Shown here one piece after another: positions 32,935-36,386 of a stretch of 64,000 bases of DNA. Source of the stretch: Escherichia coli (GTDB lineage Bacteria; Pseudomonadota; Gammaproteobacteria; Enterobacterales; Enterobacteriaceae). The notes under the pieces are model-generated. The model had not been told where the DNA came from, searched no databases, and saw nothing but the letters and a program-made list of their open reading frames with translations. Every line of letters starts with the position of its first letter. Position 1 is the stretch's first letter. The DNA lies in NCBI RefSeq assembly GCF_003334815.1, contig NZ_QOWO01000005.1, one strand, 5' to 3'. The position numbers and the translations under genes were made by a program.

Positions 32935-34521
32935 ATGGCACATCCACCACGGCTTAATGACGACAAACCGGTTATCTGGACGGTATCTGTAACGCGCCTG
33001 TTCGAGCTGTTTCGCGATATCAGCCTCGAGTTTGATCACCTGGCGAACATTACCCCTATTCAGCTTGGCTTTGAAAAAGCAGTGACCTACATCCGCAAGA
33101 AACTGGCAAACGAACGCTGTGACGCCATCATCGCGGCTGGCTCTAACGGCGCGTACCTGAAAAGCCGCCTGTCAGTGCCAGTTATTTTGATTAAACCGAG
33201 CGGCTACGATGTGTTACAGGCACTGGCAAAAGCCGGAAAACTCACCTCTTCTATCGGCGTTGTCACCTATCAGGAAACCATTCCAGCGCTGGTGGCGTTT
33301 CAAAAAACCTTTAATTTGCGCCTCGACCAACGTAGCTACATTACCGAGGAAGACGCACGCGGGCAGATTAACGAGCTAAAAGCTAACGGCACCGAAGCGG
33401 TGGTCGGCGCAGGGCTGATTACCGATTTGGCAGAAGAAGCCGGAATGACCGGAATTTTTATCTATTCCGCCGCCACCGTGCGCCAGGCGTTCAGCGATGC
33501 GCTGGATATGACGCGCATGTCGTTACGCCATAACACTCACGATGCCACCCGCAACGCCCTGCGTACTCGTTACGTGCTGGGCGATATGCTCGGTCAATCA
33601 CCACAGATGGAACAAGTACGGCAGACTATTTTGCTGTATGCCCGCTCCAGTGCGGCGGTGTTGATTGAGGGGGAAACGGGGACGGGCAAAGAGCTGGCGG
33701 CCCAGGCGATTCATCGGGAATATTTTGCCCGCCACGATGCGCGACAGGGCAAAAAGTCGCATCCGTTTGTTGCCGTCAACTGCGGGGCGATTGCCGAATC
33801 GCTGCTGGAAGCAGAACTGTTTGGCTATGAGGAAGGGGCGTTTACCGGCTCGCGACGCGGAGGTCGCGCCGGGCTGTTCGAAATTGCCCACGGCGGTACG
33901 CTGTTTCTGGATGAGATTGGCGAAATGCCGCTACCTTTGCAGACCCGGCTGCTGCGGGTGCTGGAAGAAAAAGAGGTCACCCGCGTCGGCGGGCATCAGC
34001 CTGTTCCGGTAGATGTACGGGTCATTAGCGCCACTCACTGCAATCTGGAAGAAGATATGCAGCAAGGACGTTTTCGCCGTGATCTGTTTTATCGGCTGAG
34101 TATTTTGCGTCTGCAATTGCCACCACTGCGCGAGCGGGTGGCGGATATTCTTCCGCTGGCGGAAAGCTTTTTGAAAGTGTCTCTGGCGGCGCTCTCCGCC
34201 CCATTTTCTGCTGCATTACGCCAGGGGTTACAGGCAAGTGAAACTGTGCTGCTGCACTACGACTGGCCAGGCAATATTCGTGAACTGCGCAATATGATGG
34301 AACGACTGGCGCTGTTTTTAAGTGTGGAACCGACGCCGGATTTAACGCCGCAGTTTATGCAACTGCTACTGCCGGAACTGGCGCGCGAGTCGGCGAAAAC
34401 TCCCGCTCCACGCTTACTGACACCACAACAGGCACTGGAGAAATTTAATGGCGATAAAACAGCAGCGGCGAATTATTTAGGCATCAGCCGGACGACGTTC
34501 TGGCGGCGGCTGAAAAGCTGA
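32935..34521 (+). CDS. prpR: Sigma-54-dependent activator of propionate catabolism
   Basis: 528-aa product [15 protein letters not shown]... with AAA+ sigma-54 interaction domain ([14 protein letters not shown]) and C-terminal HTH; start trimmed from 32923. Confidence 0.93.
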
Positions 34522-34618
34522 ACTGCCGAATGCAGCGCGAACGCTTTATCCGGCATAAATTTCAATAGATGATCACCGATAAACTTACGCATCGGAGATG
34601 TTTACATAGGATTCAGAA

Positions 34619-35040: not shown

Positions 35041-35712
35041 ATGATGCAGTTAGTTCACTTATTTATGGATGAAATCACTATGGATCCTTTGCATGCCGTT
35101 TACCTGACCGTAGGACTGTTCGTGATTACTTTTTTTAATCCGGGAGCCAATCTCTTTGTGGTAGTACAAACCAGCCTGGCTTCCGGTCGACGCGCAGGGG
35201 TGCTGACCGGGCTGGGCGTGGCGCTGGGCGATGCATTTTATTCCGGGTTGGGTTTGTTTGGTCTTGCAACGCTAATTACGCAGTGTGAGGAGATTTTTTC
35301 GCTTATCAGAATCGTCGGCGGCGCTTATCTCTTATGGTTTGCGTGGTGCAGCATGCGCCGCCAGTCAACACCGCAAATGAGCACACTACAACAACCGATT
35401 AGCGCCCCCTGGTATGTCTTTTTTCGCCGCGGATTAATTACCGATCTCTCTAACCCGCAAACCGTTTTATTTTTTATCAGTATTTTCTCAGTAACATTAA
35501 ATGCCGAAACACCAACATGGGCACGTTTAATGGCCTGGGCGGGGATTGTGCTCGCATCAATTATCTGGCGAGTTTTTCTTAGTCAGGCGTTTTCTTTGCC
35601 CGCTGTGCGTCGTGCTTATGGGCGTATGCAACGCGTTGCCAGTCGGGTTATTGGTGCAATTATTGGTGTATTCGCGCTACGCCTGATTTACGAAGGGGTG
35701 ACGCAGCGGTGA
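35041..35712 (+). CDS. yahN: LysE/RhtB-family amino-acid exporter YahN
   Basis: 223-aa hydrophobic ORF; length and synteny match yahN. Confidence 0.85.
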   Translation: MMQLVHLFMDEITMDPLHAVYLTVGLFVITFFNPGANLFVVVQTSLASGRRAGVLTGLGVALGDAFYSGLGLFGLATLITQCEEIFSLIRIVGGAYLLWFAWCSMRRQSTPQMSTLQQPISAPWYVFFRRGLITDLSNPQTVLFFISIFSVTLNAETPTWARLMAWAGIVLASIIWRVFLSQAFSLPAVRRAYGRMQRVASRVIGAIIGVFALRLIYEGVTQR

Positions 35713-35728
35713 GCAGATAATTTACTCT

Positions 35729-35974
35729 CTACGTAATCAACCTGATTTGCCGAATCACGGCCATCGGCGATGATAGCCCCCGTAATGCGTGGTCCTTATT
35801 TCCGATAAGTTTACTTGAGTCTTTAGCTTCCCATTTCAGCCCACTCTCCCCTGTGTGGGCTTTTTTCATTGGTCTGCCCCATCCTGAATAGCCAAACAAT
35901 GGCAATGTTCCACTTTGCAGGGATGATAATAAGGGGATCTGATTCAGAAGAGTTTTGAAAAGTTGGACCGCCAT
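35729..35974 (-). CDS. yahM: Small hypothetical protein YahM (coding status doubtful)
   Basis: 81-aa ORF MAVQLFKTLLNQIPLL...; its ATG lies inside the 3' acceptor strand of a tRNA-like sequence, so it may be a spurious ORF. Confidence 0.45.
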   Translation of the reverse strand: MAVQLFKTLLNQIPLLSSLQSGTLPLFGYSGWGRPMKKAHTGESGLKWEAKDSSKLIGNKDHALRGLSSPMAVIRQIRLIT

Positions 35975-36044
35975 CGAGGCCTCGAACCCCGTACCATACA
36001 ACAATCCTGGTTGTCGTCTGCTCTTCCTGATGAGCTAATGGCGG
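35964..36044 (-). other. tRNA-like element (probable pseudo-tRNA / tRNA relic) with encoded CCA
   Basis: Minus strand: ccgccat|ta|gctc|atcaggaa|gagc|agacg|acaac|caggatt|gttgt|atggta|cgggg|ttcgagg|cctcg|atggcgg|t|cca. Perfect 7-bp acceptor stem, D-arm with GG, T-arm with TTCGAGG loop, discriminator and CCA; the anticodon region is non-canonical (28 nt between arms, loop lacks U33). Confidence 0.5.
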
Positions 36045-36386
36045 TTTTTGATATGAGCCTTACAGCATATTTTCTGTCAGGCTTGAGTGCGATGCGTAAG
36101 ATACAGAAAAGACCCCACGCAAACATGATGGAATTATGATTTTTTTCATATGAATGTCAACCAACACATTCACAAAACATCTGCATGAGATCATTTTTTA
36201 TACACCGCATGGCTGCGAAACCACTACTGGTGCTTTTTTAAGCGAAGTGTCGCCGATCACAACAAAATATCGGCGAAAAAAGAGATGGAATGCCAGTTGG
36301 CATACAGATATACAGATGAAATGATTACCTGCATTGCGATTCACTCTCAGGTGGAATAACAACTTGCAGGTGGAACCCTTTCTGAA

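Follow-up and report, generated by a model that had tools for sequence, protein, structure and literature searches.

A conserved, apparently non-decoding tRNA-shaped element of phage tRNA-Arg descent at the yahM locus of Escherichia coli

The tRNA-like domains of tmRNA and YrlA and the eukaryotic mascRNA each put a tRNA body to a non-decoding use and are processed or recognised by tRNA enzymes. Another kind of tRNA-derived sequence, represented in E. coli K-12 by ptwF, pauD and pawZ, lies at prophage ends and consists of 3′ fragments that integration has duplicated next to a complete tRNA. Here we analyse an 81-nucleotide (nt) tRNA-shaped element, which we call X, on the minus strand at 35,964–36,044 of a 64,000-nt stretch of E. 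coli DNA (contig NZ_QOWO01000005.1 of assembly GCF_003334815.1; the whole stretch is referred to below as the window). Like ptwF, pauD and pawZ, X is tRNA-derived sequence tied to phage DNA; unlike them, it is full length, has no partner copy, is preceded by its own predicted promoter and appears to be under selection. It resembles tmRNA, YrlA and mascRNA in that a tRNA body seems to serve something other than decoding, but it lacks the G3–U70 pair of tmRNA and, unlike YrlA, keeps all four arms (with the YrlA model, whose threshold is 69 bits, a phage locus reached just 19.9). Set beside these systems, X is a diverged member of the argN/argO phage tRNA lineage that, in our reading, works like a tRNA-like non-coding RNA. 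We favour the view that X is a selectively maintained, non-decoding, tRNA-shaped, stand-alone RNA gene descended from a phage tRNA-Arg of the UCU/argN type, acting by the mechanism proposed below, and put the probability of this whole reading at about 0.5. Its core, that X is a selected and expressed RNA gene that does not decode, we consider likely.

Read 5′ to 3′ on the minus strand, X has a perfect 7-base-pair (bp) acceptor stem (5′ strand 36044–36038, 3′ strand 35974–35968) whose 5′ strand is followed by U8 and A9; a D arm at 36035–36020 (GCTC/ATCAGGAA/GAGC, with G18 G19); a T arm at 35991–35975 (CGGGG/TTCGAGG/CCTCG) with one G–U pair; and, after a discriminator T at 35967, an encoded CCA (35966–35964). 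The 28 nt between the D and T arms hold an anticodon arm with a 7-bp stem (36017–36011 with 36004–35998) and a 6-nt loop (36010–36005), and a variable region at 35997–35992. Alongside all the arms, the elbow nucleotides U8, A14, G18 G19, U54 U55 C56 and A58 are present, giving a cloverleaf with four arms and a conserved elbow; this cloverleaf is also the minimum-free-energy fold, with a modest z-score of −1.9. ARAGORN called a single tRNA in the whole 64-kb window, at exactly the coordinates of X, and labelled it tRNA-Ser(gga). Together with a re-reading of the sequence, this call bears out the fold, the encoded CCA and the 28-nt middle that an earlier note, made from the DNA alone, had described. 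The Rfam tRNA and tmRNA models, to which that note had also pointed, gave no match: the tRNA model (RF00005; gathering threshold 29 bits) left X unreported at E ≤ 10 both on 4 kb and on 151 nt, and no tmRNA was found by ARAGORN in the window or by Rfam. The Rfam miss does not imply a non-tRNA origin, since a covariance model of the X family and blastn both point to tRNA descent. With the family model X scored 90.6 bits (E 7e-22) and was the sole match in the window, and its homology to phage tRNA genes, seen with blastn as well as with the covariance model, argues that it is not a chance fold. RefSeq annotates no RNA feature at the locus; X is likewise absent from Rfam, and we found it undescribed in literature searched on yahM, yahL, b0327, ileZ/argN/argO and tRNA-like prophage elements.

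Because gathering relatives by similarity builds part of the conservation between lineages into the collection, we compared the element with its own flanks within lineages, using four independent syntenic chromosomal lineages. In Escherichia, none of the 81 element columns varied, against 24 of 134 flank columns (18%). The same pattern appeared in two further genera, designated g10 (1/76 element columns versus 39/176 flank columns) and g46 (2/78 versus 34/300), and in a Citrobacter-like group (1/75 versus 51/128). Pooled over the four lineages, 4 of 310 element columns and 148 of 738 flank columns were variable (one-sided Fisher p = 6.5e-20), although the compared genomes are mutually related, so that p-values overstate their independence. 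The four variable element positions were D-loop position 17 and anticodon-loop positions 34 and 36, the last in two lineages. X was identical at 81 of 81 positions in E. coli, E. albertii, E. whittamii, E. ruysiae, Escherichia sp. E1V33 and the divergent ‘E. coli SCPM-O-B-8794’ (SCPM), and the 82-nt leader upstream of it carried many substitutions and an indel across the Escherichia lineages. Divergence that begins at the borders of X argues against recent transfer or gene conversion. The locus was present in 5,173 of 5,426 complete E. coli genomes (megablast of the region); 4,822 of 5,171 E. coli records carried this very allele, and 301 records of O157:H7 type differed by a single change that turns the T-stem G–U pair into G–C. 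These comparisons show purifying selection on the tRNA body in four chromosomal lineages, and the earlier description of X as a decayed relic does not hold up against them.

Relatives of X occur in 53 of 401 Enterobacteriaceae genomes (31 genera; blastn, one genome per species), and a scan with an exact pattern found 73 X-type stretches in named genomes. Genera with relatives include Escherichia, Shigella, Citrobacter, Klebsiella, Enterobacter, Salmonella, Buttiauxella, Scandinavium, Dryocola, Pseudocitrobacter, Pseudescherichia, Pluralibacter, Cedecea, Phytobacter, Yokenella, Kluyvera, Serratia and Rosenbergiella. The family was defined (model R1) by an acceptor strand CCGCCAY, a D arm GCTC-N8-GAGC, an anticodon stem of ACGAC, ACAAC or GCAAC with GTTGT, a T arm CGRGG-TTCGAGG-CYYCG, an encoded CCA and a non-canonical loop, and X has all of these features. 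With the family model, the 27 aligned matches, including the canonical argN and the tRNA-Arg of MRE600, scored 69–93 bits and ordinary tRNAs at most 68. Among 151 genomes of the order, matches of at least 90 bits were confined to Enterobacteriaceae, and the weaker ones were ordinary 77-nt tRNAs; two other family members reached 38–42 bits with the Rfam tRNA model.

Across the family the acceptor stem, D arm, T arm and CCA are near-invariant and the anticodon stem is kept too. The anticodon loop is 4–13 nt long, most commonly 6, and ARAGORN assigns almost every member a different ‘anticodon’, or just two bases. In the 74-nt class, 17 unique sequences contain 14 different 6-nt loops, and the pairwise difference per site is 0.50 in the loop versus 0.077 in the body. 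Pairing is maintained (94.7% of cells paired), with covariation above that of 500 of 500 shuffles in an alignment that was itself fitted to the model; five pairs had both bases replaced, one of them being U7:A66, which is C7:G66 in 10 sequences. An arm with a 5-bp stem and a 7-nt loop with U33 and purine 37 was found in only 4 of 53 unique sequences, of which 2 are canonical tRNA-Arg genes, and normal decoding therefore appears unlikely. X itself offers an alternative anticodon arm with a 5-bp stem and a 7-nt loop, CAGGAUU, but this loop has A33 and U37, with 4 extra nt ahead of the stem, and no arginine anticodon (UCG or UCU) is present. The loop of X, the variable loops of its relatives and the miss by the Rfam tRNA model thus agree with the earlier judgement that X is probably not a working decoder.

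In some members the 3′ segment of the anticodon stem is internally duplicated (GTTGTAG...GTTGTAG), and in the 78-nt class a T run of the loop is longer or shorter from member to member; these two features suggest that the loop may change length by slippage. About half of the named members belong to [Met/Ile(CAT)]-X-Thr(TGT)/Gly(TCC) clusters with 1–2-nt spacers, an arrangement typical of lambdoid late regions, with STnc100, Q or antiterminator genes and holin genes nearby. The remainder are solitary, and no neighbour genes common to the solitary copies were found. Two candidate family traits, a CsrA-type GGA loop motif and a proline identity given by C1–G72 with NGG loops, were set aside, each being confined to a subset of members. 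An assembly titled Chryseobacterium sp. 18061 holds two copies, the one solitary and the other part of a typical Met-X-Thr-Gly cluster; their contigs are probably contaminating or mislabelled enterobacterial sequence.

Searches against phage records place the origin of X among phage tRNA genes. It matched 247 phage genomes by blastn, nearly all of them Stx-converting or other lambdoid phages. In phiP27 the match has 85% identity (E 4e-18) and falls in an unannotated stretch between ileZ and argO; mEp460-type phages match at 81%; and the phage-like plasmid NZ_CP091840 carries an 85–86% match (E 3e-20), annotated as tRNA-OTHER, between tRNA-Ile and tRNA-Arg. In phage 933W, argN, a tRNA-Arg(UCG) in the middle of ileZ-argN-argO upstream of stx2, is 75% identical to X. 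The slot that argN occupies between ileZ and argO holds an X-type element in phiP27, mEp460 and NZ_CP091840. argN and X share identical acceptor stems (CCGCCAT/ATGGCGG, with C1–G72) and D stems, the discriminator T and the encoded CCA, and their T arms differ by one loop base. The two differ in the anticodon arm, which is canonical in argN (loop CUUCGAA) and unrelated in X; in the D loop, 9 nt long in argN and 8 nt in X; and with the Rfam tRNA model, which scores argN at 54.8 bits and gives no match for X. In K-12, X also differs from argN and argO in being solitary, with its own predicted promoter and no second tRNA in the window.

The next-best match to the family model in a K-12-like genome was the host gene argU, a tRNA-Arg(UCU), at 58.2 bits. 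argU shares with X the 5′ strand of the anticodon stem, ACGAC, and A20, but has a different acceptor stem, T stem and T loop and is a normal decoder. The argN and other phage matches, together with the argU stem match, therefore identify the parent of X as a lambdoid-phage tRNA-Arg of the UCU/argN type, and this answers the earlier question of the parent isoacceptor. A horizontally acquired setting, as the earlier note had supposed, is in keeping with this phage ancestry and with the AT-rich yahL patch (33–42% GC). YahL itself gave zero tblastn matches in 50,697 phage records, a search for it as phage cargo, and no Pfam family above threshold. We also considered whether the leader and promoter (36045–36165) are related to the phage pT-ileZ region; local alignment was no better than with shuffled sequences (p about 0.9). 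Given this shuffle test, an 8–24-nt upstream extension of the blast matches and an internally deleted ileZ, which MAFFT had suggested, are both unproven. Downstream of stx2 in 933W (4584–4843 of the examined stretch) lie the Rfam families STnc100, AsxR and AgvB, all known from lambdoid late regions; three other loci likewise have STnc100 downstream of an X-bearing tRNA cluster.

The annotated gene over this locus, yahM (Table 1), has its ATG at 35974..35972, inside the acceptor 3′ strand of X, as the earlier note had observed when it doubted that yahM is a real gene. Comparison across Escherichia strengthened the doubt: the frame opened by this ATG spans only 11, 14, 17, 22 or 31 amino acids in the remaining five Escherichia lineages (E. 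albertii, E. whittamii, E. ruysiae, Escherichia sp. E1V33 and SCPM). Two of these, E. whittamii and E. ruysiae, lack about 215 nt of the yahM body, and there X abuts the end of yahN. Even within E. coli, yahM shows many amino-acid replacements between strains and is frameshifted in NCTC9022, a B2-type strain. YahM matched no Pfam family. Its reading frame runs through a putative terminator hairpin of the convergent gene yahN, and a weak Rfam match at that hairpin was driven by the hairpin and its U-tract. Because the frame is broken or absent outside E. coli while X is invariant, yahM is probably not a real protein gene; the conserved unit at this locus is promoter, leader and X, not yahM. Transcriptome studies have reported yahM as differentially expressed, and these reads may stem from the X transcript.

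Table 1 Features at the X locus, in window coordinates
Feature	Position	Strand	Basis or remark
X, 81-nt tRNA-shaped element	35964..36044	−	ARAGORN, fold, family covariance model, phage tRNA homology
P_X, predicted near-consensus sigma-70 promoter (TTGACA, 16-nt spacer, CATAAT; 11 of 12 consensus positions)	36133..36160	−	Promoter scan
Leader, about 82 nt, with two predicted hairpins (about 36125–36088 and 36083–36056)	36045..36126	−	Fold
A/U-rich 3′ trailer, ACTTTTCA, immediately 3′ of CCA	35956..35963	−	Escherichia alignments
yahM open reading frame, 81 amino acids, annotated	35729..35974	−	Intact in E. coli alone
G+C-rich hairpin with T-tract, resembling a yahN terminator, within the yahM frame	35835..35868	T-tract on +	Seen in sequence

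The 28-nt block of P_X is unchanged in five of the six Escherichia lineages (E. coli, E. whittamii, E. ruysiae, Escherichia sp. E1V33 and SCPM); the sixth, E. albertii, retains the −35 element and a −10-like hexamer. A Reg-Seq preprint found the yahM promoter to be active and repressed by IHF. From the position of the −10 element, transcription is predicted to start near 36126. The fold of the minus strand from 36127 to 35955 has an energy of −55.8 kcal/mol (z −2.9), with both leader hairpins preceding the cloverleaf, and a G–C pair in the second hairpin is replaced by A–U in E. albertii. Downstream of CCA, the trailer is nearly conserved in Escherichia, with one variable base, beyond which the alignments diverge; it reads ATTTCTCA in E. 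albertii and Escherichia sp. E1V33 and is AAUUU-like in other lineages. It resembles the trailers of E. coli tRNA precursors and may be an RNase E-type processing site.

The Citrobacter-like lineage offers a second view of the gene layout. There X adjoins a chromosomal class A beta-lactamase gene, a conserved block upstream of X resembles the putative pT promoter annotated in 933W, the closing stem of the leader co-varies between species, and a rho-independent terminator with compensatory changes directly follows X. These signals make up the layout of an independent small RNA gene. A simple scan of the g10 and g46 lineages found no clear promoter or terminator. A segment like that of C. sedlakii (uspF, LysR, blaSED, X and a helix–turn–helix regulator) has been transferred to an IncC plasmid of Enterobacter hormaechei; NZ_CP030077 (2502–2576) is among the records behind the chromosomal and plasmid observations.

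We propose that transcription from P_X would start near 36126 and that the X RNA would fold into the L-shape of a tRNA and be excised by the ordinary tRNA maturation enzymes, with RNase P cutting at 36044 and an endonuclease, then exonucleases, trimming the 3′ end as far as the encoded CCA. This would yield a stable, tRNA-sized RNA that acts through its tRNA body without reading codons. Acting in trans, it would be a mimic or decoy that engages a factor recognising the acceptor, T arm, elbow and CCA; alternatively, acting in cis, it would be a processing signal. We infer RNase P maturation, 3′ trimming to CCA, the stable small RNA product and the mode of action. Excision of X would remove the yahM start codon, and yahM would then not be a real gene. 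Within the view of X as a non-decoding RNA gene, a trans-acting mimic or decoy is favoured over a cis module, because solitary copies with their own terminator leave nothing to process. A bolder extension, to which we give little credence, is that the family forms an unrecognised class of phage-derived, domesticated tRNA mimics whose tRNA bodies work in trans. In phage–host or inter-bacterial conflict they might, for instance, inhibit nucleases that target tRNA, or other factors that bind it, or serve these as uncleavable decoys; the fast turnover of the anticodon loop would then reflect selection rather than neglect. Should X be an RNA gene as we favour, the best-studied bacterial genome would hold an unannotated conserved RNA gene beneath the doubtful yahM annotation, and reported changes in ‘yahM’ expression may report the X RNA. 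There would also be a family, spread over Enterobacteriaceae chromosomes and lambdoid prophages, that keeps the tRNA body and discards the decoding loop, a combination that calls for a function of the tRNA shape outside translation and is testable in E. coli K-12.

Several observations weigh against our reading. Similarity to X was how the family was gathered, and conservation of the body between lineages therefore looks higher than it is; the within-lineage test is free of this bias. The discriminator base is T, A or C depending on the subfamily, which speaks against one shared aminoacylation identity. Some phage copies are damaged: mEp460 and its chromosomal twin have a destroyed T loop, and a T-stem pair is mismatched in phiP27. 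Selection is thus not universal in the family, and at least some members decay. X is also dispensable, because about 5% of E. coli genomes are without the locus, the Shigella flexneri copy has a T-stem mismatch, and IS1 interrupts the T loop of X in strain DETEC-S792 and lies at the locus in strain 720632. Separately, yahL is missing in NCTC9022 and at the DETEC-S792 locus, which places yahK about 600 bp from the X promoter.

It is possible, though we think it unlikely, that X is solely a cis-acting processing module, kept as a good RNase P substrate that gives neighbouring RNAs their correct ends. In E. coli operons, tRNAs that lie close together are cut apart by RNase P, and in the prophage clusters cleavage at X and at the next tRNA would free the neighbours; the roughly half of named members that are clustered with 1–2-nt spacers fit this explanation well. 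So does the combination of a conserved body and CCA with a free loop, which is what a pure substrate of RNase P and 3′ processing would need. In Escherichia, X would set the ends of the leader and of a downstream RNA antisense to yahN, and yahM-yahN has been published as a convergent excludon. However, solitary copies without a neighbouring tRNA are conserved equally strongly, the Citrobacter-like X directly precedes a terminator with nothing downstream to process, and the leader is far less conserved than X. As a separate observation, one RNA run yielded an assembled contig of depth 419 that starts exactly at 36126 and runs for about 1 kb (35107–36126) through X and yahM and antisense into yahN, next to an upstream contig of depth 34.5; contigs of this kind cannot prove ends, strand or level, and this one, from a single study, is not counted here as evidence. 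Its extent fits the published listing of the yahM-yahN excludon.

A neutral relic, that is, a dead phage tRNA gene left by a lost prophage and slowly decaying, is an improbable account of X. The aberrant anticodon arm, the miss by the Rfam tRNA model, the T-arm damage in the mEp460 and phiP27 copies, and the fact that the locus is dispensable and struck by IS1 in some strains are what such a relic would lead one to expect. The absence of any change in 81 nt over six Escherichia lineages, against the variation in its flanks and with like patterns in three other lineages, is not. In addition, the only common polymorphism in E. coli keeps the pairing, and the near-consensus promoter is conserved alongside X.

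Quite improbable, too, is the explanation that X is a 5′ untranslated region element of a real yahM, controlling its translation by burying two signals in the fold, a Shine–Dalgarno-like GAGG within the T loop and the AUG within the acceptor stem. The GAGG does lie 6 nt ahead of the ATG, with both inside helices or loops of the fold, and differential expression of yahM in transcriptome studies would suit a regulated gene. Yet X is invariant where the yahM frame is only 11–31 amino acids long or its body is deleted, the frame is shifted in B2-type E. coli and its amino acids change frequently within the species, and the reads counted as ‘yahM’ may derive from the X transcript.

We consider it highly improbable that X is an unconventional working tRNA that is aminoacylated and promotes frameshifting, reads doublets or donates its amino acid outside translation. 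The full tRNA body and encoded CCA would serve such a molecule, and X retains A20, an arginine identity element; C1–G72 with NGG-containing loops in some members may recall proline identity. These features must be set against loops of 4–13 nt that are almost random in sequence between close relatives, an unconserved discriminator, the lack of a consistent anticodon and the usual absence of U33 and R37. A role of X as DNA, whether as the attachment site of an integrative element or as a protein-binding site, is no better placed: although tRNA genes are common integration targets, there is no integrase nearby and no duplicated half-site in the 64 kb, the interrupted copy examined in detail (DETEC-S792) holds IS1 and no island, with IS1 also in strain 720632, and variation preserves RNA pairing (U7:A66 to C7:G66; G–U to G–C). 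For the same reasons, the earlier suggestion that X marks an old integration site found no support. No second half-copy of X occurs in the window at up to 3 mismatches, and the homology shared with relatives extends no further than the element on either side. X is full length, which, with the lack of a partner copy and of a nearby integrase, led us to reject an att relic; a truncated match in DETEC-S792, tried as an integration site, is explained by the IS1 insertion.

The genes around X are prpR, yahO, yahN, yahM, yahL and yahK. Position 36119 of the window, in the leader, reads G and thus C on the minus strand; A stands there in nearly all E. coli genomes and in all four sets of RNA-run contigs; other Escherichia species carry the base of the window. 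An 81-nt leader sequence of the window was matched at 99% or more by 1 of 5,169 E. coli records. Between prpR and yahO, a REP-like element lies at 34482–34555 on the minus strand and scores 28.6 bits with the Rfam naRNA4 model, under its threshold of 59.5.

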